Source: a virus
Lineage: Duplodnaviria; Caudoviricetes
Virus record (IMG/VR): IMGVR_UViG_3300017560_000002
Coordinates: 3,587 to 67,586 of that record
Length of the DNA: 64,000 nt
Strand: one strand, 5' to 3'
A program made the translations under genes and the position numbers. Below, piece by piece: positions 11,921 to 53,350 of the stretch. The notes below the pieces were generated by a model. That model did not search any database and had not been told where the DNA came from. It saw only the letters and a program-made list of their open reading frames with translations. Each line of letters starts with the position of its first letter. Within the stretch, counting starts at the first letter, position 1.

Positions 11921-12327
11921 CGCCCGGCAGCTTCGCGCGCCAGCCTTTCCGCGCGTCTCTGCTGGGCTCCGGAGAGCTTCTTCGGTGGCCGGGTAGCTTT
12001 GGGCGCGGCCGGCTTTGCAGGCGGCTCGTCGGCCTTCCTTGCGGCTTTCTTGACCGCCTGCACGGTCGGTGGCAGCGACACTGCGACTTTCACCCGATCG
12101 ACTTCCGCAGCCGACCGACGGTCCGGTGTCTGAATTTCAGGCGGTGACGTGCCGACGTGGCGCAGGAATTCGTTGGTGACACACTGCGTCCGTCCGTTAT
12201 CCCAGCCTACTTCCGAGACTTCCAGACCGGGAACTTTGATGGTGCCCGTCATGCCGCTGTGCGTCGAGCCGATGTCGTAGACGCGGTCACCCTTCTGAAA
12301 AGCCGGCGGCGTCTTATCCTTCGGCAT
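11917..12327 (-). CDS. Hypothetical protein with an SH3-like N-terminus and a basic tail
   Basis: FQKGDRVY..G.I....EVGWDNG; Lys/Ala/Pro-rich C-terminus. Confidence 0.55.
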   Translation of the reverse strand: MPKDKTPPAFQKGDRVYDIGSTHSGMTGTIKVPGLEVSEVGWDNGRTQCVTNEFLRHVGTSPPEIQTPDRRSAAEVDRVKVAVSLPPTVQAVKKAARKADEPPAKPAAPKATRPPKKLSGAQQRRAERLAREAAGR

Positions 12328-12958
12328 GGCAAAATTCCCCGAGTTCCGCCTCGCCCATGCCGCAACGACGGCACAGACCTAGCACGACTTCGCCGTTCCG
12401 ATCCTTGATTGCGTCGGGTGCGTCCGCGTCACCGGTCTGGTACAAGTGGTGGCGGCCGGACGGTGGCGGCGATCCCTCCAGAATGGCCGTCTGCGGACCG
12501 GCCTGCTGGTCTTGGTACTTGCCTTCGTACGGCAGCGCCGTGCGGTGGTCCAGCTGGTGGAAGACGATCTGGGCAATTCCGGAGCCGGCTTCGACGTATA
12601 TCGGCACGGCCGGCGGCGTCTGTCCTCTGTCCGGTAGACGCGGTGGCCCGTGGTAAGTGATCTCGAGCGTCAGAAAGCCACGCCAGCCGGGCTCGATCAC
12701 AGTGTTCTGGACGAACAGGCCGCGACGCGCCCAAGTGCTCTTGTCGTGTACGACGGCGAGCACGGCACCCGGCATGTTGAAGCGCTCGACAGTGCTGGCT
12801 AGCACGAACTGACCGGGAAGCAACACGAGCTTCTCGGCAACGCGCACGTCGTAACCGGCCGGTCCCAGCCCGAAGGTCACGCCATTGTGGCGCGTCCTCT
12901 GGCAGAACGGTTCGACAGGCTGGAGCGCCTGAATGGTCTGTGCCGACAGGACCGTCAT
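12314..12958 (-). CDS. dcd: dCTP deaminase (trimeric dUTPase superfamily)
   Basis: AGYDVR, KSTWARRG, TVIEPGWRGFLTLE motifs. Confidence 0.85.
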   Translation of the reverse strand: MTVLSAQTIQALQPVEPFCQRTRHNGVTFGLGPAGYDVRVAEKLVLLPGQFVLASTVERFNMPGAVLAVVHDKSTWARRGLFVQNTVIEPGWRGFLTLEITYHGPPRLPDRGQTPPAVPIYVEAGSGIAQIVFHQLDHRTALPYEGKYQDQQAGPQTAILEGSPPPSGRHHLYQTGDADAPDAIKDRNGEVVLGLCRRCGMGEAELGEFCHAEG

Positions 12959-13536
12959 TGCTCGCTTCCCTCCCGCATCAGTTCCTTACGGAGGCACTCG
13001 GCGTCGGCAGCTTGAATTTCAGCCGCCCGCGCCTCGACGGCCGCTTCGGAGAACAGCCCTTCAAACAGGGCGCGTACGTCCTCCGGACTGCGGGCCGGAT
13101 CGGTCGGCTCCATTGCGAAAATCTCCAGAATTTCGCCCGCCTTGCCCTTCACCGGCCGGTTATCGATCAACTTACCGCACGCCAGCGCGTCCATATAGAT
13201 GGCGGCGTTGGCAAGGATGAAGCAACCGTGGTGAATGCCGGTCTTGGTGTCGTAGTCCTGCCCGTCCTTGAGAGCCTTGACGTGGCGCTCGAGCGCTTCG
13301 ATGTAGACGAGCGCGAGCACCTTTGCGACGCGGTAATTGTACGGCCCGTATTTGCCGGCACCGTTACCCATGCCGATCGCGGTAAAGACTTCGGCGGTGG
13401 CCGGCACGACGCCGAGCGGAACCTTGAGGTCCCCGAGACCGTCCTTAGGGTTGACGCTGTTCTCGGCGACGGGGCGCAGGCCGCTTACGTATCCGGGCGC
13501 GCGATATGGCGCGGCCGTTCTCTGGTTGTCCGACAT
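12955..13536 (-). CDS. DUF5664-type dATP/dGTP diphosphohydrolase
   Basis: NPKD..G..KVPL.VVP..GAGKYGPYNYR..ALERH...G.DYD..TG.HH...LAN pattern. Confidence 0.75.
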   Translation of the reverse strand: MSDNQRTAAPYRAPGYVSGLRPVAENSVNPKDGLGDLKVPLGVVPATAEVFTAIGMGNGAGKYGPYNYRVAKVLALVYIEALERHVKALKDGQDYDTKTGIHHGCFILANAAIYMDALACGKLIDNRPVKGKAGEILEIFAMEPTDPARSPEDVRALFEGLFSEAAVEARAAEIQAADAECLRKELMREGSEQ

Positions 13537-28401: not shown

Positions 28402-29064
28402 ATGACGAGCAGAACGCAATGGATTTCGGGTACTCGTTTCTGGAAAGACCCGCAAGTCAAACAACGGCTGACCGAATTGTGGCGTAATCCGGACATACCG
28501 GCGTCGGAGATTGCGAAGCTTCTAAGTAAGGAATTCGGCGTCGACATTTCCACCAACTCAGTGATCGGCAAGGTCCATCGGCTCGGCCTGCACGACGAAT
28601 ACCCGCGTCACAACGGCGCGCGCGTCATGCAGATCAGAGGCCGCAACGGAACGGCGATGTCGCCCGCGATGCGTGCCCAGCAGCGAGAGCGCCGGTTGCT
28701 GCAGATCGAGCAGCAACGCGCCGCACGGGCGGCGACTGTAAAGTCGGAGACAGACCAGCATGGTAGGGTCCTCGCCGCCTTCCGGCCCGCCACTGTTCAG
28801 CACGAAATGAAGCGTGGCGACGACGGCAAGCTGATCCCGACGATACCGGAACTTCCGGAAGAGGAACCCGATGCGCCGTTCGTCCTGCTTACTGGCGTCA
28901 GTCGCACGGCCTGCCGCTGGCCGATGCCCGGTGTCGACGACGATGGCGTGTCGCACCTATGTGGTCAGAAGTCGGCTTTCGGTGCGTACTGCGCGCGCCA
29001 TGCCGCGATCGGCTACGTCCGCCCGCCGTCGGCGTCGCGCATGGAACGTTTCTGGTGTGTGTAG
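28402..29064 (+). CDS. gcrA: GcrA-like cell-cycle regulator
   Basis: LTELW..ASEIA..NSVIGKVHRLGL N-terminus; CRWP..LCG..YCARH C-terminus. Confidence 0.85.
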   Translation: MTSRTQWISGTRFWKDPQVKQRLTELWRNPDIPASEIAKLLSKEFGVDISTNSVIGKVHRLGLHDEYPRHNGARVMQIRGRNGTAMSPAMRAQQRERRLLQIEQQRAARAATVKSETDQHGRVLAAFRPATVQHEMKRGDDGKLIPTIPELPEEEPDAPFVLLTGVSRTACRWPMPGVDDDGVSHLCGQKSAFGAYCARHAAIGYVRPPSASRMERFWCV

Positions 29065-29065
29065 C

Positions 29066-29407
29066 ATGGCAAGGCGGAACACTTTCAGATGGACGCCGGA
29101 AGTGTTCGCACGCATCAGGCAGATGCGTGATAACGATCGGCTGGCACCGAATGTGATTGCGGAGCGGCTGGGCGTGTCCGACACCGCACTACATACGGCT
29201 TGGAGCCGATACAGGTCCGGCCGGCTGAAATTCACGCACGTCGCCGCCGACAAGGAACGCACGGTGCGCGAGCAGATGTTCCTGTCGGGCTCCAACCTGT
29301 CGGACATTGCTCGAGCGCGCAACGTTTCGCCGGCAGCCGTCAGTCTGGGATTCACTCGCTCTGGCTTCGATGCGGAAGTCAGGCGTAGCATGAGGAAGAA
29401 GTCATGA
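29066..29407 (+). CDS. Double-HTH DNA-binding protein
   Basis: PNVIAERLGVS and LSDIARARNVSPAAV; ATG 29066. Confidence 0.6.
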   Translation: MARRNTFRWTPEVFARIRQMRDNDRLAPNVIAERLGVSDTALHTAWSRYRSGRLKFTHVAADKERTVREQMFLSGSNLSDIARARNVSPAAVSLGFTRSGFDAEVRRSMRKKS

Positions 29408-31434
29408 CCGAAGCAACCGTTAACGGCATTCCGGTCAACGATGCCGTCAGGGCTAACATCACGAAGGTCCGCGATTCGCTGACCAATCTGATTACTGGTA
29501 TGGGCACGGCACGCGACAAGACCGCCGCCACCCGCTTTAACTTCGTGCCGCTCGACATTGCCCAGCAGGAAGCCGCTTATCGCGGCGACTGGATCGCGCG
29601 TAAAGTTGTTGACATTCCGGCCTACGACGCCACCCGCGAAGGCCGCAACTGGCAGGCCGATCGTGCCGACATCACGGCGTTGGAGACTGCCGAAAAGAAT
29701 CTGAACTTGATGAACAAGCTCCAGACCGCGATGATCAAGGCGCGGCTGTACGGCGGTGGCGCGCTGGTGATGGGCGTCGACGGCACGGGCGACAACAGCA
29801 CGCCGCTTGATCTTAACATGGTCAAGAAGGATTCGTTGCGATTCGTGCACGCGATCAGTCGGAACGAGATTGCGTCCGGCCCGATTGAGCGCGATCTCGG
29901 CAGTCCGTGGTATGGCGAACCGCAATACTACGATCGCACAGCGGCCAACACGTCATCGATGCGTATTCACCCGTCGCGCGTGGTGCGGCTGGTCGGAATG
30001 CCGCTGCCTGATCCTGATCGAAGTGGCGTCGGCGACGGCTGGGGCGACAGTATGCTGCAGATCGTGCATGACGCCATCGTCGGCGCGGGCCTCGTCATCA
30101 GTTCGGTCGCGTCGTTGGTGCAGGAGAACAAGCTCGACGTGATCAGCGTTCCGGACCTAACCGCCAGTCTGTCCGACCCGGACTACTCCAACCGTCTGCT
30201 CGAGCGCTTCGCTCTTGCTGGCGTCGCCAAGTCGCTGCACAACATGATCCTGCTCGACAAGGACGAGGAATGGGAACGCATCAACGCGCAGTTTACGGGG
30301 ATGCCCGATCTGCTGCGCATGTACCTGCTTATCGCGTCCGGTGCTGCCGACATTCCGGCCACCCGCATGCTGGGCCAGTCGCCGACTGGTCTGTCAGCTA
30401 CCGGCGAAAGCGACATCCGCAATTACTATGACCGCGTGTCGACGGAGCAAAAGACGACGATCGCCCCGGCGCTCAGCCGCATTGATGAAGTGATGATACG
30501 GTCGGTGCTCGGCACCCGGCCCGCCGACATCTTCTTCGAGTGGAATTCGCTCTGGCAGCTGACGGAAAAGGAAAAGACCGAGATCGCCAAGTCGAAGTCC
30601 GACGTGTTTAAGGTTGACGTCGATACCGGCCTGATCGAGCCCGAAATTCTGCGGGAAGCTCGCATCAACCAACTGATCGAGGACGGCACCTATCCCGGAC
30701 TGGAATCGATCTTGGAAGACTTCGAAGCGCAGCAGGAAGCCGGGCTGCTGGGTGAAGCTGATCTCGCACCCGATCCGACCGACGAGCCTATTAACACTGG
30801 CGTCGATATCGGCAACGAAATGCCGCTGGCTGATGCCGCCCGCATTCTGCAGCGCCGACATAAGCGCTTCGGGAATTCGTTTAAGGACGAACACGGGGCG
30901 CTGCACCGCCGGGTTAGCAGGCTGATCGCCGACGCCCGGCCGCGCACGCTCTACATGCGGCGCGACGTCGTCAACGCTGATGAAATCCGCGCATGGGCAA
31001 AGTCAGTTGGCTTCGAGACGGTACAAACCGACCTGCACGTCACGGTCGCCTATTCACATACGCCGGTCGACTGGTTTAAGATCGGCGAAGACTGGACCGT
31101 CGGACCGAATGAAGAGGACAGGCTCGTCGTTAAAGGCGGGCCACGCGCGATCGAGGAATTCAACAAGGGCGCGATCGTGCTGCAGTTCGCCTCCACCAAG
31201 CTCGGGTGGCGGCACGAGAGCATCCGGGAGCGCGGCGCGTCGTGGGACTTCCCGGAGTACAACCCGCACATTACGCTGACGTGGAACAAACCGCAGGGCC
31301 TCGACATCGCCGCAATTAAGCCCTACAACGGACAGATCGTGCTCGGACCGGAAATTTTCGAGGAAATTAAGACCGACTGGGTCAGGCACGAGGACGCCAA
31401 GGCCGGCCGGGGCGACATTCCGTTCTGGTGGTAA
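29404..31434 (+). CDS. Portal protein (DUF1073 type) with a C-terminal Acb1-like 2H phosphoesterase domain
   Basis: WIARKVVDIPAYDATRE, ARLYGG, GLSATGESDIRNYYD portal motifs; C-terminal LHVTVAYS and PHITL (two HxT motifs). Confidence 0.88.
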   Translation: MTEATVNGIPVNDAVRANITKVRDSLTNLITGMGTARDKTAATRFNFVPLDIAQQEAAYRGDWIARKVVDIPAYDATREGRNWQADRADITALETAEKNLNLMNKLQTAMIKARLYGGGALVMGVDGTGDNSTPLDLNMVKKDSLRFVHAISRNEIASGPIERDLGSPWYGEPQYYDRTAANTSSMRIHPSRVVRLVGMPLPDPDRSGVGDGWGDSMLQIVHDAIVGAGLVISSVASLVQENKLDVISVPDLTASLSDPDYSNRLLERFALAGVAKSLHNMILLDKDEEWERINAQFTGMPDLLRMYLLIASGAADIPATRMLGQSPTGLSATGESDIRNYYDRVSTEQKTTIAPALSRIDEVMIRSVLGTRPADIFFEWNSLWQLTEKEKTEIAKSKSDVFKVDVDTGLIEPEILREARINQLIEDGTYPGLESILEDFEAQQEAGLLGEADLAPDPTDEPINTGVDIGNEMPLADAARILQRRHKRFGNSFKDEHGALHRRVSRLIADARPRTLYMRRDVVNADEIRAWAKSVGFETVQTDLHVTVAYSHTPVDWFKIGEDWTVGPNEEDRLVVKGGPRAIEEFNKGAIVLQFASTKLGWRHESIRERGASWDFPEYNPHITLTWNKPQGLDIAAIKPYNGQIVLGPEIFEEIKTDWVRHEDAKAGRGDIPFWW

Positions 31435-32489
31435 GGACCACGCCGATGCTAGCGCGCCTCCGCCATCCGTCAGCTGCTCCGGCCTACGCTTGTCTATGCG
31501 ACGCGCGCTCCAAGCCGTCGCGTGACCCGACCGGCACGTTTGACTTGAGGCGTCGATACCGAACCTTGCTGGCGACGCGCTGGCACAAGCTGGTCGCCCG
31601 ATTCAAGACGGTGGTCGTAGCGCAGGACATCTTTGGCATCGCGCCGACGCCAACCGCGTCGTCGATCGCCGCCACCCTTGCTCCCGGTGGTCGCGTCAAG
31701 TCATTTCAGACGATTGCCGATGGGCTGTTACGTGACGCGCTGCTTGGGCGGGACGACGGCGAGTGGCTCGAGCCGATGACCCAGCAGGCGTATAATCGCG
31801 GCGTCAAGCGAGCGCTGCGGATGGTTGCGCCCGGCCTGCGGGTCGAGAATCGCGACGTCGTCGAGGCCGGCGAAGTGTTGCAGGCGCTGGTGGTGGTCGA
31901 GATCGAAGGCATAATGGAAGCGGTGTCGCAGCGGCTGGTGCGCATCGCGTCCTACGCCGTGATCGACGGCGGCGATCCTAACGCCGTGATGCGCGACATC
32001 GCCGACGCAATCAACAAGATCGGCGTCCAGCGCACCAACGCCATGGTGGAATTCATGGTCGTCAAGGCGCACGCCACCGGGACGCTCGACGTGTTCGAGC
32101 TCGCCGGCATCCGCGCTGTCGGCCTCGTACCCGAAACTGTACCGGCGACGACACGTACGATTGGCGACGCGGCGGCGCGTGGTCCGCGTGCCCGTGGTCG
32201 CACCGGTCCGGGCTCCCGCGCCAGTCGCAAATCAACGCCGTCGGCTTCTACCATCTACCGCATTCGCAAGGCTCAGGAAGAGCTTGAGAAGATGGAGGAA
32301 GTCGACATCCTGACTGCGGGCGACGCCGACGTTTGCGAGGAATGCGAAGGAATTGCGGAGGAAGGCCCATATCCGATCGACACGGCGCGCTCGCTGATAC
32401 CGGCGCACCCGTATTGTCGTTGCGCCTATGTGCCTACCGATGACGCCCGTTTCGCGGAAATCGAGACCGACGAAACGGAATGGTTTTAA
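31428..32489 (+). CDS. Head morphogenesis protein (SPP1 gp7/Mu gpF-like)
   Basis: DPTGT N-terminus; D.DVCEEC...IPAHPYCRC. Confidence 0.85.
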   Translation: MVRTTPMLARLRHPSAAPAYACLCDARSKPSRDPTGTFDLRRRYRTLLATRWHKLVARFKTVVVAQDIFGIAPTPTASSIAATLAPGGRVKSFQTIADGLLRDALLGRDDGEWLEPMTQQAYNRGVKRALRMVAPGLRVENRDVVEAGEVLQALVVVEIEGIMEAVSQRLVRIASYAVIDGGDPNAVMRDIADAINKIGVQRTNAMVEFMVVKAHATGTLDVFELAGIRAVGLVPETVPATTRTIGDAAARGPRARGRTGPGSRASRKSTPSASTIYRIRKAQEELEKMEEVDILTAGDADVCEECEGIAEEGPYPIDTARSLIPAHPYCRCAYVPTDDARFAEIETDETEWF

Positions 32490-32501: not shown

Positions 32502-33404
32502 ATGAACATGCGTAAAGTTGCCGTCATCGGCACCGGTTACGTCGGAACCGGAATGGTTTCGATGTTCCAACACGGCTTCGATGTCCGGACCTACGACACC
32601 AAGTACACAAACGCAGACCGGGCCAACGTGCAGGGCTGCGATCTCGCCGTGATCTGCGTACCGACGCCGATGGGACCGGATGGCGGAGCCGACATTACCG
32701 CCGTACTCGACGTGGCGTCGTGGATTGACGCGCCGCTGGTCGTGGTCAAGTCGACGGTGCCGCCCGGCACGACCGATGGCCTCAACCGCATCTACGGCGA
32801 TGGCCGCTTTCATTTCAGCCCGGAATACATGGGCGAACCACGCAACTACATGTCGGGCCACAAGTACCCTGACCCGCGCGAGCCGCGAACCCATGACTTC
32901 GTGATCGTCGGCGGGCCACGCGCGTCGGAAGTGCTCGACTTCTTTCTCGCAGTGATGGCGATCGACGCCCGTTATGTCGGCACCACGTCGATCGCGGCGG
33001 AACTCGCGAAGTACATGGAAAACACATACTTCGCCACCAAGGTCACGTTCTGCAACGAATGGGCGCGGATCGCCAAGAATTTCGGCGTCGATTACAAGCA
33101 TCTGCGGGAATTGTGGCTGCTCGATCCGCGAATGGAGGCCGACCACACGGCCGTATTCAGTCATTCGCCGGGCTTCGGCGGCAAGTGCCTGCCGAAAGAC
33201 CTTGCCGCGATTATCTACTCGAGCGCGGCGGCGGGCTTCTATCCGGAGCTCCTGATGGCGGTGCAGGAAGTCAACGACAACATGCGCAATCAGCCGGTGT
33301 CGCCGGTTCCGACGCCCGTGCAGCTGTCGAAGCCGACGTTTGACGCGCCGCCGGCCGTGGTCGAGCAGTACGGCACGAGCCTGCTGGAGAAACTGGGGCG
33401 ATGA
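32502..33404 (+). CDS. UDP-glucose/GDP-mannose dehydrogenase family protein, apparently lacking the C-terminal domain
   Basis: IGTGYVG, ICVPTP, KSTVPPGTT, SPEY, AELAKY.EN, GFGGKCLPKD. Confidence 0.88.
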   Translation: MNMRKVAVIGTGYVGTGMVSMFQHGFDVRTYDTKYTNADRANVQGCDLAVICVPTPMGPDGGADITAVLDVASWIDAPLVVVKSTVPPGTTDGLNRIYGDGRFHFSPEYMGEPRNYMSGHKYPDPREPRTHDFVIVGGPRASEVLDFFLAVMAIDARYVGTTSIAAELAKYMENTYFATKVTFCNEWARIAKNFGVDYKHLRELWLLDPRMEADHTAVFSHSPGFGGKCLPKDLAAIIYSSAAAGFYPELLMAVQEVNDNMRNQPVSPVPTPVQLSKPTFDAPPAVVEQYGTSLLEKLGR

Positions 33405-33562
33405 ATAAACCAGCGGATGTCGAAGGTGGCGGCGGTTGTCTCGTCTTTATTGGCGTCGCCATCGTTTGCGCCGGCCTTGCGTCGTGGATCGGCTGGGGCA
33501 CGGCAATGACCGTCTTCGGCGTATTTGTCGTGCTGCTCGGCCTGATCGCTATATTTGGCTAG
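33401..33562 (+). CDS. 53-aa two-TM membrane protein (not in the ORF track)
   Basis: MNKPADVEGGGGCLVFIGVAIVCAGLASWIGWGTAMTVFGVFVVLLGLIAIFG; ATG overlaps the upstream stop. Confidence 0.6.
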   Translation: MNKPADVEGGGGCLVFIGVAIVCAGLASWIGWGTAMTVFGVFVVLLGLIAIFG

Positions 33563-33587
33563 CGAGGGGAAATCAAGGAGACGACGC

Positions 33588-33764
33588 ATGTATCTGATCG
33601 TTATGTCCGTGGTCCTGTCCGTGCTGGCGGCGCTGATCGACCACTTTTTCGGCATCGGCGAGCCGTGGCGCAAGATGATTTACGCCGGTATCGTGATCGT
33701 CTTCGTTCTCGGCGTCGTATTGTTGCTGCTCCGGTTGGGTGGCATCGCAACTCCGGCTTGGTAG
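33588..33764 (+). CDS. 58-aa two-TM membrane protein
   Basis: AAGGAG RBS; two hydrophobic helices. Confidence 0.7.
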   Translation: MYLIVMSVVLSVLAALIDHFFGIGEPWRKMIYAGIVIVFVLGVVLLLLRLGGIATPAW

Positions 33765-33806
33765 CCGACATCAACAAATCCGCGTAGCCTTGAGGAGGGC
33801 AAGATC

Positions 33807-34706
33807 ATGAAGATGCTGTGGTGCTACGACGACGAGGGCGTCTGGGGACGTCATCTGTATGAAGCGGCGCGTAATCGCAAGATGCCCGCCCGGATGTTTA
33901 CCAGTCCGTACGAGCCGAACGAAGGCTACGTCTTTGCTCACATGCATCACCACCCGAACGTCCGGGCACGCGACAAGGCGGTAATGGCGCATCTGGCGCT
34001 CAATCCCGGTCTTACTCTGATTCCCGACTACCGCTCGTCAGTCGTTTATGACGACAAGATCGAGCAGTGCCGACACTTCGCCAAGTGGATGCCGCGCACG
34101 TTCGTCAGCCGCACTGCGAGCGAAGCCCGGATCGTGCTGGGCCAGATGCGATATCCGTTCATGTCGAAATCGTTCGACGGCGCGGGCTCGCACAACGTAC
34201 GCCTAATCGTCGACGAGGACGCCGCGCGCAACGAAATCCGACTGGCATTTGGTGGCGACGGCATCAAATGCCGCTACAACCAGATGCAGCAAGACTATCT
34301 GTTGTGGCAAGAATTCATTCCGGGCAACGACCACGACATTCGCGCCATCATCATCGGCGAGCAGGTCATGCTGCTACGGCGCGACAATCGCGACGATCGC
34401 CCGATGGCGAGCGGCTCTGGGCGCACGATCCCGATTACGTACAAGAATCTTGACGCTCACTACTGCAGCGCGCTGGATTTTTCGCGTCGGTTCTTCAAGG
34501 AAAACAGCCTGAAATGGTGCGGCATCGATTTGGTGGCGCACGGTGATCGCTGGTACGTGCTCGAGACCACGGTCGGCTGGACGATGCCGGTCTACAACGA
34601 TTGCACGTTCTTCGGGCCGGGCGACGTTTACGCCTCGACGCCCTATACAGGCAAACAGACGTGGAGCGTTCTGCTCGACGAAATACAGCGAGGAATCTTC
34701 AAATGA
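33807..34706 (+). CDS. ATP-grasp ligase (RimK-like)
   Basis: DDK, MPRT, PFMSK..GAGS..V, WQEFIP..DIR, GIDL..VLE. Confidence 0.85.
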   Translation: MKMLWCYDDEGVWGRHLYEAARNRKMPARMFTSPYEPNEGYVFAHMHHHPNVRARDKAVMAHLALNPGLTLIPDYRSSVVYDDKIEQCRHFAKWMPRTFVSRTASEARIVLGQMRYPFMSKSFDGAGSHNVRLIVDEDAARNEIRLAFGGDGIKCRYNQMQQDYLLWQEFIPGNDHDIRAIIIGEQVMLLRRDNRDDRPMASGSGRTIPITYKNLDAHYCSALDFSRRFFKENSLKWCGIDLVAHGDRWYVLETTVGWTMPVYNDCTFFGPGDVYASTPYTGKQTWSVLLDEIQRGIFK

Positions 34707-35293
34707 GGCACTTCTATTCAGACATTCCGGGCTGGGCGTCGTTCGCCAAGCTCTACGTCGATATCGTGCGCGCCGCACCCGCGCAGGGCGCGCACTTCGT
34801 CGAGATCGGCTCGTGGCAAGGCCGGTCCGCCGCGCTGATGGCGGTTGAAATCATCAACAGCGGAAAGCAGATCACTTTCGACTGCGTCGACCCGTGGTCG
34901 GACGGCGGACCCGATCTTAAACACAAGATCGACAAGGCCAACGTCGGTCCGGACTGGCTGTACGAACAGTTCCTCAAGAACACGAAGCCCGTGGCGCACA
35001 TGATCAACGCGCGCCGCATGAAGTCGCTCGAAGCCGCGCCGACCTATCAGGACGCTTCGCTCGACTTCGTCATGATCGACGGATCGCATCAGTACGACGA
35101 CGTCCGCGCCGATATCGTGGCGTGGCTGCCGAAGATCAAGCCCGGCGGCTACATTTCGGGCGACGATTACAACTGGTCTGGCGTCCAGCAGGCCGTAAAC
35201 GAGCTCCTGCCCGGACGCTTTCGCGTGTTTACCAACACGACCAGAAAGCAGGGCAAGAAGGGTCATCCGCGCTACTGGGTCGTTAAATGCTGA
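34703..35293 (+). CDS. Class I SAM-dependent methyltransferase (Methyltransf_24-like)
   Basis: VEIGSWQGRS, VDPW, FVMIDGSHQY..V..D, KPGGYISGDDY; ATG 34703. Confidence 0.88.
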   Translation: MRHFYSDIPGWASFAKLYVDIVRAAPAQGAHFVEIGSWQGRSAALMAVEIINSGKQITFDCVDPWSDGGPDLKHKIDKANVGPDWLYEQFLKNTKPVAHMINARRMKSLEAAPTYQDASLDFVMIDGSHQYDDVRADIVAWLPKIKPGGYISGDDYNWSGVQQAVNELLPGRFRVFTNTTRKQGKKGHPRYWVVKC

Positions 35294-35994
35294 CGCTCGT
35301 AATGGCGTATTATGAAAACCCGGTCATGCTCGCACATCACTTGCACGAGTGGCGGGCGTGGTCGGCTCGAGCACGCAAGGAGATCGCCGTCGTCATCGTC
35401 GACGATGGCTCTCCGCGCAACCCGGCAATCGACGTGCTGACGGGTTTCGATTCCCTGCAGCTGTCGCTATATCGGGTCGACGTCAACATACCGTGGAATC
35501 AGGACGGCGCTCGCAACCTTGCGATGAAGGCGGCGCAGACCGACTGGACGCTGATGACTGACATGGATCATCTGTTGTTGCCGTCGGAGGCCGACCGTCT
35601 GCTCGATATGCCGAAGCAACGCGGCTATTACTACATGCCCGCCCGGCGCACGATCGCGGGCAAGCGTTGCGAGCCGCACTTCAACAGCTACGTCATGCAC
35701 CGCAAGGATTTCTGGCGCATCGGCGGATACGACGAGGACTTTGCCGGCTTTTACGGCAGCGACGGCAATTTTCGCAGGCGTATGAAGGCGTACAAGGCCC
35801 GAGAGGTAGAAACCGAAGCGTTCTACCTGACCCAAGTATTCAGCACCGACGTTGCGGATTCCAACACCCGCGAGTGGGGACGCAAGAAGACTGAATGGGC
35901 TGTGTCGGGCAACTCGGCGCTGAAAGCCAAGAACGCGGCTCCACCTTACGTCGCCAGCGATCCGCTGCGCTTTCCCTACCGGAGACTGATCTGA
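35287..35994 (+). CDS. GT-A glycosyltransferase (GT2/GT7-like)
   Basis: IVDDGS, ARNLAM, TDMD (DxD), GGYDEDF.G.YG.D. Confidence 0.85.
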   Translation: MLTLVMAYYENPVMLAHHLHEWRAWSARARKEIAVVIVDDGSPRNPAIDVLTGFDSLQLSLYRVDVNIPWNQDGARNLAMKAAQTDWTLMTDMDHLLLPSEADRLLDMPKQRGYYYMPARRTIAGKRCEPHFNSYVMHRKDFWRIGGYDEDFAGFYGSDGNFRRRMKAYKAREVETEAFYLTQVFSTDVADSNTREWGRKKTEWAVSGNSALKAKNAAPPYVASDPLRFPYRRLI

Positions 35995-36725
35995 TGCACC
36001 ACATCGTGCTGTGGAAGTGGCACCACCCGACTTACCGCGAGCGATTCACTGCCGACCACGTCAATCACGTGGCGGCGATGCTCAGGCGCAATTGCGCCGG
36101 TTTGGAATTCAGGATCGTGCTGATTACTGACGACGCCGCAGGCGTTGACCCGTCGATCAGCGTCTATCCGCTGTGGCGCGACCATTCCGACATGAACAAC
36201 ATCTGCGGCGCGCACCTACCGTCGTGTTATCGCCGTCTGCGACTGTTTGATCCCGACACTCAGGCGCGGATGGAAATGTATCCGGGCGATCGCATCGTCA
36301 GTATCGATCTTGACGCCGTGATCTGCCAGCCGATCGCCCCGATGCTCGAGCGCAAGGAGCGCTACTTAGGCTGGTTCGTGCACGGCACGCATCACCGTTC
36401 GGTCTACAACGGCTCGCTATTTATGTTTACGGCCGGCGATCTGGCCGACGTCTGGTTGAAATTCCACGCCGACACGTCGCCGAAAGAGGCGCTCGCCGCC
36501 GGTTATCTCGGCTCCGATCAGGGCTGGTTGTCATACTGTTTGCTAAAGAACTCTTGGGCGAGCGGGTGGATCAGGCCCGAAGTCGTCAGTTATTCACGCG
36601 ACGTAATGCAGTCGCGGACGCTGCTGGCCGAGACGCGGATCGTGTTCTTTAATGGTCGACGCAAGCCTTGGCATAGGGATGTTCAGAGGCAGTCGCCTTG
36701 GATTGGTAGATACTGGCGTATATAA
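35994..36725 (+). CDS. GT-A glycosyltransferase (GT8-like)
   Basis: LITDD, SIDLD (DxD), YNGS, SDQGW, FFNGRRKPW; ATG 35994. Confidence 0.78.
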   Translation: MHHIVLWKWHHPTYRERFTADHVNHVAAMLRRNCAGLEFRIVLITDDAAGVDPSISVYPLWRDHSDMNNICGAHLPSCYRRLRLFDPDTQARMEMYPGDRIVSIDLDAVICQPIAPMLERKERYLGWFVHGTHHRSVYNGSLFMFTAGDLADVWLKFHADTSPKEALAAGYLGSDQGWLSYCLLKNSWASGWIRPEVVSYSRDVMQSRTLLAETRIVFFNGRRKPWHRDVQRQSPWIGRYWRI

Positions 36726-36769: not shown

Positions 36770-38053
36770 ATGGAACCGGGGCGTCCCCTGATGCTGAAAG
36801 ACGGCGAGACCAGCAAGATCGAGCTTACTGACCGATTGTCCTTCGGGGACGCCGCCGCCATGCGGATCACGAAGGACGGCTATCTCGTCACTCAGCCGCG
36901 CGTCGCCCGGACCGGAATTCAGCTGTATCGGGGCAGCGAAGTCGGACGGCCGGAACTCGACGTCGTCCGCGTCTATCGCGCCGAAGATCAGGTGTTCCAC
37001 GCCGATTCCTTCCACACCTTCGCCTATCGTCCGATCACCGACGACCATCCACCAGTACCGGTGCAGGCCGACAATTGGAAGCAGTATTCCGTCGGGCAGA
37101 CCGGCGGCGACGTCGTGCGCGACGGTCAGTTCATTCGCGTGCCGATGGTCCTGATGGACCAGACCGCCATCAAAAAGGTGCGTGACGGCAAGGTGGAACT
37201 CTCGGTTGGCTATCTGGCCGAGATCAAGTGGGGCAAGGGCGTATCGCCTCAGGGCGAGCACTACGATGCCCAGCAAGTCGGAATCAACGTCAACCATATC
37301 GCACTGACGGACGCAGCACGAGGCGGGGACAAGCTGCGTATCGGCGACGAAGACGACAACAAGGATAAGAAAGACGGGGGCGCGTCGGACGATAATCCGC
37401 CCGACAAGTTGAGCAAGTCAACACACGGAGACAAGGCAATGGAGAAGCTGATCGTCGATGGCGTGACCATCGAGCTTGAGGACGCTCTGACGGCGGGCGT
37501 GATCCGCAAGGCCGTCAAGGACTTGGAGACGCGCGTCTCTTCGCTGTCCGCCAAGCTGGCGGAGGAAGAGGAAGCGAAGAAGACCGCCGCCACCGACAGC
37601 GCTGCCAACACCACCAAGCTGCAGGCCGAGATCGTCACCAAGGACGCCGAGATCGCCAAGCTCAAGCAGCAGATCGCCGACGCCGCCATGACGCCCCAGC
37701 GCCTCGACGCTCTCGTCAAGGACCGCGCCGAAGTCGTCGCCAAGGCCAAGGCCCTGATCGGCGATACGCTCGTCGTCGATGGCAAGACCGAAGCCGAAAT
37801 TCGCAAGGCCGTGGTCGACGCCAAGATGGGCGACACTGCGAAGTCCTACAACGACGACATGGTGAAGGTGGCCTTCGACACGCTGACTTCCGGCATCAAG
37901 CTCGACGGCACTGCTCCTGCTCCTTCGAATGGCGCCAGCCAGCAGATGGCTCACGCCTTCAAGCAGGACACGCGCACCACCGCCCAGCACTACGACGCGT
38001 ACGACAAGAAGCTGTCGGAGCGCTGGAAGACCGCAGGCATCCCGACCCAGTAA
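36770..38053 (+). CDS. DUF2213-type prohead protease/scaffold protein
   Basis: ARTGIQLY, VELSVGY, NHIALTDAARGG; coiled-coil C-terminus; start may be ATG 36791. Confidence 0.85.
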   Translation: MEPGRPLMLKDGETSKIELTDRLSFGDAAAMRITKDGYLVTQPRVARTGIQLYRGSEVGRPELDVVRVYRAEDQVFHADSFHTFAYRPITDDHPPVPVQADNWKQYSVGQTGGDVVRDGQFIRVPMVLMDQTAIKKVRDGKVELSVGYLAEIKWGKGVSPQGEHYDAQQVGINVNHIALTDAARGGDKLRIGDEDDNKDKKDGGASDDNPPDKLSKSTHGDKAMEKLIVDGVTIELEDALTAGVIRKAVKDLETRVSSLSAKLAEEEEAKKTAATDSAANTTKLQAEIVTKDAEIAKLKQQIADAAMTPQRLDALVKDRAEVVAKAKALIGDTLVVDGKTEAEIRKAVVDAKMGDTAKSYNDDMVKVAFDTLTSGIKLDGTAPAPSNGASQQMAHAFKQDTRTTAQHYDAYDKKLSERWKTAGIPTQ

Positions 38054-38698: not shown

Positions 38699-39664
38699 AT
38701 GTACCTTGTGGATCAGCAGGCGGCACTGGGCTTTTTGCAGTCCCAGACTGCCCACATCGAAAGTCAGGTGGTCGAGGTTCAGTACCCCGACATTCAGTAT
38801 CCTGACATCATCCCCGTCGATTCGACGGCCAACGAATGGGCAACGTCGGTCGAGTATTACTCGACCGATCGCGTCGGCAAGGCCGGGTGGTTCCATCACC
38901 ACGCCAAGGACATCCACGTCGCCGACGTCCAGCGCAACCGCCACGAAGTCAGCATCGAAATGGCTGACGTCGGCTACCGCTACACGCTGCAGGAACTTGG
39001 CACGGCGATGATGATTCCCGGCCGTAATCTTTCTGCGGACCGTGCGGCGGCGGCGCGTCGGGCCTACGAAGAGTTCATCGACGAAGTCGCGCTGCGCGGC
39101 GACGCTGAGAAGAACTTCCACGGCCTGATCAACTACCCCGGCATTTCATCGGCTCTGGTCCCGGCGGGTGCCGGTTCCGGCACCCCGCTGAACTGGATCG
39201 GCAAGACGCCCGACGAGATTTTGGCCGACGTCAATGCCGTGCTGATCGGCATGTGGACGTCGTCCAACACCGTCGAAATGGCGGATACGATCCTGATTCC
39301 GCCGGCCGCGATGGCGGCAATCGCGACGCGGCGTCTGACGGACACGCAGATCACGGTCCTGCAGTTCTTGCTGCAGAACAACGTCTACTCGCACACGACC
39401 GGTCGCCCGCTGGTGATTCGCGCCGTGCGTGGGCTCGAGACGGCGGGCGTCGGCGGCACCGGCCGCATGATCGCCTATCGGCGTGATCCGCTGGTCCTCA
39501 AGCTGCACATTCCGATGACCCATCGGTTCTTGCAGCCGTTCCAGACTGCGCCGCTGGTCTTCGACGTTCCGGGCATCTTCCGTCTCGCCGGCCTCGAAGT
39601 CCGACGGCCGGGAGCCATCCGGTACGCCGACGGCATCCTTGCCGCGCCGTCCGACAGCGAGTAA
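38699..39664 (+). CDS. Major capsid protein (DUF2184-type HK97 fold)
   Basis: FLQSQTAHIE, GYRYTLQEL, GLINYP, PMTHRFL; size and position. Confidence 0.88.
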   Translation: MYLVDQQAALGFLQSQTAHIESQVVEVQYPDIQYPDIIPVDSTANEWATSVEYYSTDRVGKAGWFHHHAKDIHVADVQRNRHEVSIEMADVGYRYTLQELGTAMMIPGRNLSADRAAAARRAYEEFIDEVALRGDAEKNFHGLINYPGISSALVPAGAGSGTPLNWIGKTPDEILADVNAVLIGMWTSSNTVEMADTILIPPAAMAAIATRRLTDTQITVLQFLLQNNVYSHTTGRPLVIRAVRGLETAGVGGTGRMIAYRRDPLVLKLHIPMTHRFLQPFQTAPLVFDVPGIFRLAGLEVRRPGAIRYADGILAAPSDSE

Positions 39665-41565: not shown

Positions 41566-42132
41566 ATGGCCGACGCAGTCCTTAACGCCCCGAACCCGCG
41601 CAACTACCGCATCGGTAAGGGTCGTGGTTACTTCAAGCGCTTGGGAGACACCGACTTTCGCGCGCTGGGCAACTGCCCGGAGATCGAATTCACGCCCGTG
41701 ATCGAGAAGCTCGAGCACTTCTCGTCGATGGAAGGCGTGCGCGTCAAGGATTTGGACGTGGTGCTCGAGAAGGGCGGTACGCTCCGGATCGTCATGGAAG
41801 AAGCCACCCTGCACAACCTGCAGATGCTTCTGATCGGCGACGTCGATATGCTCGACCCGGAAGGCCCGTCCATCGACATTCTGGGCGGCGTCAGCCTCGA
41901 GGGCGAGTTCCGCTTCGTTTCGTCCAACGACGTCGGACCGAAGTACAACATTCACCTGTATCGCGTCGTGTTCTCACCGTCCGGCTCGCTCAATCTGATC
42001 GATCAGGACGAAGTCGGGAACTTCGAAGTCGAAGGCGAATCCCTGATCGCAATTCCGGGCGGGCCGAACGAAGGCAAGTTCGGCAAGCTGTGGTTCACCA
42101 ATATCGAAGGGTACATGCCCGCCGATAGCTGA
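41566..42132 (+). CDS. Major tail (tube) protein
   Basis: NYRIGKG, LGNCPEIEF, EHFSS..G.R.KD; position. Confidence 0.75.
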   Translation: MADAVLNAPNPRNYRIGKGRGYFKRLGDTDFRALGNCPEIEFTPVIEKLEHFSSMEGVRVKDLDVVLEKGGTLRIVMEEATLHNLQMLLIGDVDMLDPEGPSIDILGGVSLEGEFRFVSSNDVGPKYNIHLYRVVFSPSGSLNLIDQDEVGNFEVEGESLIAIPGGPNEGKFGKLWFTNIEGYMPADS

Positions 42133-52969: not shown

Positions 52970-53350
52970 ATGATCCCCGGACGTTATGACTTCGAGGTTT
53001 GGCGCGGGACCACGCCTCGATTTGTGTTCGCCGTGCTTGATTCGAATCAAGTACCGGTCGAATTCGACGACATCCGCGTCAGTTTTGCGTACAAGGGAAA
53101 CCTGCTCTTTCGTAAGACTTACGTTATGGACGACAGCAGCGAAAGTCCGGGCGGCGTGGTTTCGGAAGATGAATACGCTGGGACTTTTCGTGTTGTGCTG
53201 ACGCCCGAAGACACCCGGACTATTCGCGAGGCGTCGGATACGAAGCCCTACACGCCAGCCACTTACGAAATCGAAGTGTGGCACAACGGTAGCCAGCTGG
53301 TCTATCTGTGGGGTGAGATTGTAGGCCGGGGAGGCCGGAACGATGACTGA
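52970..53350 (+). CDS. Fibre adaptor-like protein (BppU N-terminal-like)
   Basis: YDFEVWRGTT..TYEIEV; precedes the collagen fibre gene. Confidence 0.5.
   Translation: MIPGRYDFEVWRGTTPRFVFAVLDSNQVPVEFDDIRVSFAYKGNLLFRKTYVMDDSSESPGGVVSEDEYAGTFRVVLTPEDTRTIREASDTKPYTPATYEIEVWHNGSQLVYLWGEIVGRGGRNDD

Follow-up and report, generated by a model that had tools for sequence, protein, structure and literature searches.

The stretch of DNA considered here (the window, 64,000 nucleotides) was taken from virus record IMGVR_UViG_3300017560_000002, the genome of an uncultured tailed phage of 67,586 bp with direct terminal repeats and a CheckV completeness of 100%, and it harbours, within a long late operon on the plus strand, a cassette of seven genes (32502-36725) which may provide the phage with a system for the glycosylation of its own virion proteins. 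The cassette is located between a head-morphogenesis gene and the prohead protease/scaffold gene and encodes, in this order, a short dehydrogenase (DH) resembling UDP-glucose dehydrogenase (UGDH), two small hydrophobic proteins (tm1 and tm2), an ATP-grasp ligase, an S-adenosylmethionine (SAM)-dependent methyltransferase (MT) and two glycosyltransferases, of which GT1 belongs to the GT2 family and GT2' is GT8-like (Table 1). An earlier note, drawn up from the sequence, had described seven co-oriented genes at this position, mostly with stop/start overlaps, and this description holds throughout: all seven open reading frames (ORFs) are located on the plus strand between these two genes, and the GC content at the third codon position (GC3), 0.67-0.82 versus 0.44-0.49 in the alternative frames, identifies them as coding.

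The genes are packed tightly. DH overlaps with tm1, and the ATP-grasp gene with MT, by ATGA, with further overlaps of 8 nt between tm1 and tm2, 7 nt between MT and GT1 and 1 nt (TGATG) between GT1 and GT2'; gaps are limited to 12 nt upstream of DH, 42 nt upstream of the ATP-grasp gene, where the ribosome-binding site GAGGAGGG is located, and 44 nt upstream of the protease gene. Based on these overlaps, translation of MT starts at 34703 and translation of GT2' at 35994, and the starts of the longest ORFs, 34601 and 35895, respectively, were rejected. Promoter-like and terminator-like sites were not more frequent between 25 and 42 kb than in shuffled sequence, and none was convincing on the plus strand inside the cassette, where the two terminator-like matches are weak with 3 G-C pairs only. 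As neither a convincing promoter nor a convincing terminator is found within the cassette, we infer co-transcription with the head genes as the simplest reading.

Table 1. Cassette genes, proposed acceptor proteins and flanking genes, with positions in the window.
Feature	Position	Strand	Basis
DH, short UGDH-like NAD-dependent dehydrogenase, 300 aa	32502..33404	+	PF00984 83 bits; PF03721 48.5 bits
tm1, hydrophobic protein of 53 aa, probably two membrane-spanning helices	33401..33562	+	GC3 0.67 versus 0.44 in the alternative frame
tm2, 69 aa, two predicted membrane-spanning helices	33555..33764	+	GC3 0.77; hydrophobic segments at residues 10-35 and 37-69
RimK/LysX/ArgX-like ATP-grasp ligase, 299 aa	33807..34706	+	AlphaFold2 (AF2) fold matches; phage-borne family
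MT, SAM-dependent methyltransferase of Methyltransf_24 type (TylF/CmcI-like)	34703..35293	+	PF13578 73 bits; weak TylF and Methyltransf_3 matches
GT1, soluble GT2-family (GT-A) glycosyltransferase	35287..35994	+	PF10111 34.9 bits (cut-off 27.3); PF00535 30.8 bits (cut-off 23.3)
GT2', soluble GT8-like retaining GT-A glycosyltransferase	35994..36725	+	AF2 predicted local distance difference test score (pLDDT) 94.7; phrog_1962 3.4e-10
C-terminal tail LAAPSDSE of the major capsid protein (MCP), proposed acceptor	39638..39661 (gene 38699-39664)	+	extends past the conserved end of the family
Major tail (tube) protein ending in ...EGYMPADS, proposed second acceptor	41566..42132	+	phrog_807
Head-morphogenesis gene (SPP1 gp7/Mu F-like), upstream flank	31428..32489	+	phrog_758, phrog_4728, phrog_115
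Prohead protease/scaffold (DUF2213), downstream flank	36770..38053	+	PF09979 169 bits; phrog_530 3e-92

The SAM methyltransferase and the two GT-A glycosyltransferases that had been proposed for this locus are borne out by PF13578 in the case of MT, by PF00535 and PF10111 in the case of GT1 and by a GT8-like fold in the case of GT2'. For GT2', no Pfam match was obtained up to E 0.01, the matching phrog_1962 is labelled 'glycosyltransferase', and the best PDB matches of its model are LgtC, a GT8 protein and glycogenin. The motifs DxD, YNGS, GSDQ and G..KPW are invariant or nearly so across 20 homologues, with the residues D105, D107, G173, D175 and Q176 being invariant. Among the top viral structural matches of GT2' are fusions annotated as 'MptE-like', a domain related to the Maf flagellin glycosyltransferases. 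GT1 displays the motifs DDG and DMD and, as all five cassette enzymes, possesses no membrane segment. MT, probably a sugar O-methyltransferase, shows 28% identity to O-methyltransferases of cluster F mycobacteriophages in a weak match (E 2e-4) and matches a PHROG labelled 'DNA methyltransferase'; no match was obtained upon comparison with PDB sequences.

The assignment of an ATP-grasp ligase to the fourth gene, also made beforehand, stands on the RimK/LysX/ArgX-like fold of the AF2 model (pLDDT 93.3), although the sequence stays below the Pfam cut-offs (21.3 versus 23.2 bits; PF08443, 16.6 versus 21 bits). Structural comparison by VIA-align retrieved ArgX (Z 24.6), LysX/ArgX (Z 23.1) and RimK (Z 21.8) with 259-264 of the 299 residues aligned at a root-mean-square deviation of approximately 3 A, followed by a RimK-domain protein (Z 20.7), glutathione synthetase (Z 19.6), D-Ala-D-Ala ligase (Z approximately 18-18.5) and ITPK1 (Z 17), and Foldseek retrieved the same top matches (E 1e-15). 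The protein thus shares its whole fold (Z 21.8-24.6) with RimK, which glutamylates ribosomal protein S6, and with LysX and ArgX, the ligases acting on the carrier protein LysW, and its likely substrates, short acidic C-terminal protein tails, are predicted to be of the same kind. It differs from these enzymes in being far below the cut-offs of TIGR00768 (33 bits, cut-off 143) and TIGR02144 (31 bits, cut-off 276) and in having a glycosyltransferase gene as its partner in phage head modules. In the ESM Atlas the ligase is found among RimK-like clusters, three of which are purely viral, and approximately 100 metagenomic homologues show 33-55% identity. With a family profile, no PDB sequence was retrieved up to E 0.001, and tblastn identified no homologue in deposited phages. 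In IMG/VR, a scan with the single sequence did not find any homologue, and a scan with an alignment as query found 24 viral contigs. Distant homologues (32-37% identity) encoded on two contigs of marine archaeal metagenome-assembled genomes (MAGs; L146 and L149, one of them Poseidoniaceae) may originate from archaeal tailed viruses.

The first gene of the cassette had been read as a nucleotide-sugar dehydrogenase. What stands is the UGDH-like nature of the protein, which consists of a Rossmann NAD-binding and a central dimerisation domain as in UGDH and the GDP-mannose 6-dehydrogenases (3vtf, 3gg2) and which in the alignment with UGDH 3vtf retains the GxGxxG motif, K..N and the catalytic Cys in GFGGKCLPKD; what has to be amended is its extent, as the protein ends approximately 36 residues past the central domain and thus differs from UGDH by the missing C-terminal UDP-binding domain PF03720. 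This domain was found neither in DH nor anywhere else in the genome, which led to rejection of a split dehydrogenase with PF03720 encoded by a separate gene. Compared with TIGR03026, DH scores 149.8 bits, below the cut-off of 189.8. Nevertheless, DH is not a broken gene, as more than 100 homologues (database protein clusters with 50-66% identity, 250-300 aa, on contigs of up to approximately 72 kb) have the same short two-domain architecture, the homologue in locus L050 having 265 aa; the short family is found in metagenomes and phages. The best tblastn match of DH is GdhgA of Mycobacterium avium, part of a glycopeptidolipid cluster, and a UGDH homologue is encoded by Bacillus phage SP-15, the DNA of which is hypermodified. 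On one viral contig (L005:7742-14212), the short dehydrogenase is accompanied by two glycosyltransferases, one of GT-B type and one TET-associated (TAGT), as well as by a ParB_N and a radical-SAM-like protein, in what looks like a DNA-hypermodification cluster.

With respect to the two tiny proteins with two transmembrane helices each postulated by the earlier note, two helices are predicted for tm2 and are probable for tm1 (Kyte-Doolittle hydrophobicity peak of 2.3), but no homologues are detectable in the related cassettes. Neither protein matches any family among Pfam, PHROG and other family models, and the small membrane ORFs of other cassettes (L009, L017, L037) are not homologous to them.

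A search for the cassette in related phages, as recommended beforehand, showed that a core pair, the ATP-grasp and the GT8-like gene, recurs in the head modules of many phages. A GT8-like homologue occurs in the same locus as the ATP-grasp gene in 22 of the 24 IMG/VR contigs, mostly directly adjacent, and the pair always adjoins head or packaging genes, with the GT8-like gene being the commonest member of the cassette family. The gap which holds the cassette in the window, from the head-morphogenesis to the protease gene, also holds the pair in relatives of the window phage. Even where capsid (phrog_29, 334, 617, 3437) and portal families are unrelated, the neighbours of the pair are capsid, portal or terminase genes: it adjoins the capsid gene in L020, L024 and L026, separates the portal from later genes in L021, precedes the terminase in L022 and L029 and is located upstream of protease and capsid in L014. 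The other members are more variable. MT and GT1 homologues are present in some of the 24 contigs and missing from others, and the dehydrogenase is present in none of these contigs and in just 3 of approximately 40 related cassettes, DH, the ATP-grasp ligase and the GT8-like enzyme being found together only in L050, in the Sphingomonas MAG contig L148 and in the window. Sister cassettes encode additional methyltransferases of FkbM type and similar to a rhamnosyl-O-methyltransferase (RMNT_CmcI), which would fit the building of a methylated glycan.

The same gap harbours other genes in other genomes, namely those for an ADP-ribosyltransferase together with DUF7178 (L089:4107-6316), a NUDIX hydrolase (L090:5142-5684), an RNase T-like exonuclease (L079:7088-7654) and a collagen-repeat protein of 624 aa (L050:1895-3769). 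Directly after the head-morphogenesis gene, five loci (L006:9359-9946, L007:9602-9970, L011:9491-9958, L012:9474-9959, L041:5019-5363) encode low-complexity coiled-coil-like proteins of 114-195 aa that share only the C-terminal motif NTP(I/V)ID(P/K)(K/N)(T/G)G.K.W. As the gene for this protein with its C-terminal NTPIIDPKTGxKTW precedes the ATP-grasp gene in four of them (L006, L007, L011 and L012), the protein was considered as a substrate resembling a ribosomally synthesized and post-translationally modified peptide (RiPP), and was rejected because it is absent from the window genome and present in L041, which is ATP-grasp-negative.

Candidate acceptors of a modification were sought among the C-terminal ends of structural proteins in 80 loci with MCP homologues plus the window, 17 of these loci and the window having a GT8-like gene. 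The MCP family has a conserved end ...RY.DGI, with the Pfam Major_capside model stopping at residue 313, 'DGI', and the solved homologue Pam3 gp7 (8HDT, 310 aa) aligning through 'DG' at 309, one residue short of its end. All 18 MCPs from loci with the GT8-like gene possess 5-8 extra residues past this conserved end, for example LTSDELS, SGDEPS, TGDNPS, LTVDNPS, WTVDQAS, LDTAYE, MDANYE, SDYAS and VTNQYS, with LAAPSDSE in the window, and most MCPs from loci without the gene stop exactly at DGI. The terminal residue in the GT8-like-positive loci is Ser in 14 of 17 cases and Glu in the other three. In the same loci, the homologues of the tail-tube protein (...TNVTAVS, ...TNLADAS, ...TNVEPAS, ...SPSSS; ...MPADS in the window) terminate with Ser in 11 and with Thr in 2 of 13 cases, the residues before the last one being variable. 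A small tail-associated protein ends with Ser in seven of seven GT8-like-positive relatives, where acidic tails such as NDDEDDAS and NDDEEVAS are found; the copy in the window, encoded before a collagen-like tail fibre gene (52970-53350, plus strand), stops at ...GRNDD, so that this family may represent a third acceptor that has been lost in the window phage. Conserved terminal Ser is restricted to these three families, as no conserved C-terminal residue was observed in GT8-like-positive loci for the portal, protease, cement, connector and tape measure proteins or for the cassette enzymes themselves. The tail of the cement protein was rejected as an acceptor as it does not correlate with the presence of the cassette.

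Taken together, the cassette on balance probably encodes a late-expressed cytoplasmic system which glycosylates the phage's own virion proteins. In such a pathway, the GT8-like enzyme would start O-glycosylation of the capsid and tail-tube proteins at their terminal Ser/Thr (or Tyr) tails and the GT2-family enzyme GT1 would extend the chain, with O-methylation of a sugar by the Methyltransf_24 enzyme. The short UGDH-like dehydrogenase would provide uronic acid, either as the nucleotide sugar or on the glycan, and the RimK/LysX-like ATP-grasp enzyme would form an amide on a carboxylate, be it of the uronic acid or of the C-terminal or acidic tail of the protein. The predicted acceptor is accordingly the extreme C-terminus, a few residues long, of two abundant proteins, and a minimal system of two genes is predicted, in which the GT8-like transferase acts alone or together with the ATP-grasp ligase. 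Late decoration of virion proteins, which had been favoured from the start, gains from the recurrence of the core pair in head modules, from the serine-ended tails and from the lack of genes for DNA glycosylation and lysogenic conversion. The specific chemistry proposed along with it does not gain likewise: a uronic-acid-containing, methylated and amino-acylated glycan is something we only infer from the enzyme set; the dehydrogenase is devoid of a UDP-binding domain and occurs in few of the related cassettes. A more specific version, in which the ATP-grasp and GT8-like pair constitutes a previously undescribed system for post-translational modification of the virion that equips short C-terminal tails (mostly Ser/Thr/Glu) of MCP and tail tube with an amide-linked residue plus an O-linked methylated uronic-acid glycan, is put forward tentatively and is rather doubtful.

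Glycosylation of phage particles has precedents in actinobacterial hosts. In Corndog, a cluster O mycobacteriophage, an O-methyltransferase (gp35), two glycosyltransferases (gp36 and gp37) and an N-acetylglucosamine (GlcNAc)-transferase (gp38) are encoded between portal and protease (Cresawn et al. 2015, PMC4351075), and glycosylation of capsid and tail tube has been demonstrated for Che8, Corndog and Myrna (Freeman et al. 2023, as cited in PMC12363180). In the literature consulted, only a few mycobacteriophages have been shown to glycosylate their virions with enzymes of their own, and there the modification shields the particles from antibodies (PMC12363180, citing Freeman 2023). The window cassette thus resembles Corndog in combining a methyltransferase with soluble glycosyltransferases in the structural operon, in the same portal-to-protease slot, and the two proteins reported as targets are the ones which bear terminal tails here, a likeness that is correlative. 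In Che8, the glycosylation sites are reportedly C-terminal. On the other hand, the host of the window phage is probably an alphaproteobacterium (see below), and GT1 and the GT8-like enzyme have no mycobacteriophage homologue by tblastn. The statement of the earlier note that no described pathway has this enzyme combination consequently needs restriction, as Corndog has a methyltransferase and glycosyltransferase cassette in the same position (PMC4351075). The RimK/LysX-like ATP-grasp ligase, the short dehydrogenase and the two small membrane proteins have no counterpart in the four-gene cassette described for Corndog. As far as gene content tells, the window cassette differs from the Corndog/Che8 kind by two extra enzyme types, the ligase and the dehydrogenase, and a literature search did not retrieve any paper on modules of ATP-grasp enzymes and glycosyltransferases in phage head operons.

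Among deposited genomes, the closest one to encode homologous glycosyltransferases is that of Tetraselmis viridis virus S20/SI1 (NC_020840), a tailed-virus genome that has been attributed to an alga. Homologues of GT1 (34% identity) and of the GT8-like enzyme (37%) are encoded there together with a methyltransferase in a cassette of approximately 5 kb, located between the protease/capsid region and a head-closure gene (L030, NC_020840: 26950-32533) and thus after, not before, protease and capsid. This cassette has extra sialyltransferase-like genes, no ATP-grasp gene and no annotated dehydrogenase, and a functional study of it was not found in the literature search.

What weighs against glycosylation of virion proteins comes from the tails, from the gap and from the relatives of two of the enzymes. 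Ten MCPs from loci without the GT8-like gene have tails as well, of a different kind (...SP/...AAP; SGVGSP, SAAP, TPASPATP), and the MCP of the window itself ends with Glu, not with Ser. An MCP tree built without the tail requires at least 3 changes of the glycosyltransferase trait and at least 7 of the tail, and the independent-pairs test yields 1-3 independent contrasts and no significance; with at most three such contrasts the association between tail and glycosyltransferase, perfect in one direction, does not reach statistical significance. Naive binomial p-values were set aside, as they take no account of relatedness. In two other capsid lineages (L024, L026), no clear difference in the tails was seen between carriers and non-carriers. 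Moreover, the gap between the head-morphogenesis and the protease gene is a general cargo hotspot in the lineage of the window, and as it holds unrelated cargo in relatives, the position of the cassette alone is weak evidence. The cassette could hence be one more item in an insertion-tolerant site, directed at a soluble metabolite or an ejected protein, just as the ADP-ribosyltransferase (L089), NUDIX (L090), exonuclease (L079) and collagen-like (L050) genes occupy the same gap; this is highly improbable in view of the tight translational coupling of the seven genes, the reappearance of the core pair beside head genes in lineages whose head modules are not homologous and the specific pattern of capsid and tail-tube tails in the carriers. 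Another possibility, partly compatible with glycosylation and not fully exclusive of it but rather a refinement, is that the ATP-grasp enzyme acts on protein directly and ligates an amino acid or another amine onto the C-terminal or acidic tails of the capsid and tail-tube proteins, with glycosylation being a separate or later event. ArgX, LysX and RimK all modify the C-terminal tails of proteins, the four best matches in the structural comparison (Z 20.7-24.6) rank 1-5 Z units over glutathione synthetase, the enzyme is mostly found without any dehydrogenase, and the tails are short and acidic (DELS, DNPS, SDSE, ANYE) like the tail of LysW. The tail of ribosomal protein S6 is likewise acidic and short. 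Direct ligation is nevertheless unlikely: the same types of tails occur in relatives that are positive for the glycosyltransferase and negative for the ATP-grasp gene (L035, L037, L041, L047, L042, L044), ATP-grasp folds include kinases (ITPK1) and small-molecule ligases, and the Mg-binding Asn of the E-x-N motif appears, when read by eye, to be replaced by Thr (LETTVGW).

The enzymes might alternatively work on DNA, with the glycosyltransferases adding a methylated, uronic or amidated sugar to a base before or during packaging. Phage GT-A enzymes that are structurally near GT8 glycosylate 5-hydroxymethylcytosine, hexuronic acid included, and phage DNA glycosylation clusters combine a C5-methylase, TET/5mYOX and a glycosyltransferase, with uronic acids among the sugars (10.1101/2023.12.21.572611). 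The cassette shares with these clusters the soluble GT-A enzymes, some of which have GT8-like relatives, and further hints in this direction are the clustering of the short dehydrogenase in L005 with genes for TAGT, ParB and radical-SAM proteins, the UGDH homologue of phage SP-15, the PHROG label of MT and the presence of unusual-DNA genes (PurZ, MazZ-like, dCTP-deaminase-like) in the genome. Late hypermodification of DNA is, however, improbable, as the complete genome lacks any match to a ThyA-like hydroxymethylase, Tet_JBP, a C5-cytosine methylase, TGT/DpdA or TAGT, so that no enzyme making an acceptor base was found; of these negatives the one for Tet_JBP is weak, because that search matched in no control genome. 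In addition, two complete cassette-bearing relatives also have no ThyA-like and Tet_JBP genes, the core genes accompany capsid, portal and terminase genes rather than those for replication and DNA metabolism, and the tails of capsid and tail-tube protein would be left unexplained. Equally improbable is a remodelling of the host surface, that is of lipopolysaccharide (LPS), capsule or exopolysaccharide, which would exclude superinfection or avoid re-adsorption of the progeny and in which the small membrane proteins would have an auxiliary role at the membrane. LPS and capsule loci typically encode GT2 and GT8 glycosyltransferases, UGDH and sugar O-methyltransferases, and the best tblastn match of DH, GdhgA, as well as the two small membrane proteins in the cassette would agree with such a role. 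However, neither an integrase nor a resolvase was found in the complete genome, which makes lysogenic conversion unlikely and sets the phage apart from Gtr-type and other seroconversion systems. The cassette shows no match to a polyprenyl-phosphate transferase, flippase, polymerase or GT-C enzyme, its five enzymes are soluble, its membrane proteins match no family and the membrane ORFs are not conserved across cassettes, the core being linked to head genes across lineages.

In the genome as a whole, early and late genes are located on opposite strands. The minus strand carries early/replication genes encoding a family A DNA polymerase, a DUF5906 primase/helicase and dCTP-deaminase-like, MazZ-like and PurZ-like proteins; on the plus strand, the late operon starts with the small and large terminase, a GcrA homologue, the portal and the head-morphogenesis gene and proceeds, after the seven cassette genes, with the DUF2213 prohead protease, a cement protein of Pam3 gp6 type and MCP, followed by connector genes, tail tube, tape measure, tail fibres and endolysin. 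Megablast searches with the cassette and with the head region identified no close relative in INPHARED. The cassette is missing from Rhizobium Kleczkowskaviruses and from Pseudomonas phiPSA1, whose portals share 42% identity with that of the window phage. The portal gene (29404-31434, plus strand) encodes at residues 514-660 a C-terminal Acb1 domain (PF23474 123 bits, phrog_755), a 2H phosphoesterase directed against the cyclic-oligonucleotide-based anti-phage signalling system (CBASS), and the Rhizobium and Pseudomonas phage portals align over the same length. A homologue of the cell-cycle regulator GcrA (28402-29064, plus strand; PF07750, 7.5e-16) is encoded between the large terminase and portal genes, and judging from this homologue the host is probably an alphaproteobacterium. 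The genes for the dCTP-deaminase-like, MazZ-like (PF18909) and PurZ-like (PF00709, 60 bits) proteins (window 12314-13536 and genome C1:3295-4377, both on the minus strand) suggest a 2-aminoadenine (Z) genome, so that the phage DNA is probably modified already, by a route independent of the cassette.

With respect to its significance, glycosylation of virion proteins by this cassette would mean that the phenomenon also occurs in a phage of a probable alphaproteobacterial host, with core genes that recur in approximately 40 uncultured phages, and glycan coats of phage particles would be far commoner than assumed, with consequences for adsorption, for stability in the environment, for recognition by immunity and grazers and for phage therapy. 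If the composite tagging of tails by the ATP-grasp and GT8-like pair were true, the C-termini of capsid proteins would be tagged enzymatically in many phages of Gram-negative bacteria, and the short UGDH-like enzyme would oxidise its sugar without a UDP-binding domain. Two enzyme families, the RimK-like ligase of head modules and the short UGDH without UDP-binding domain, could gain a function.

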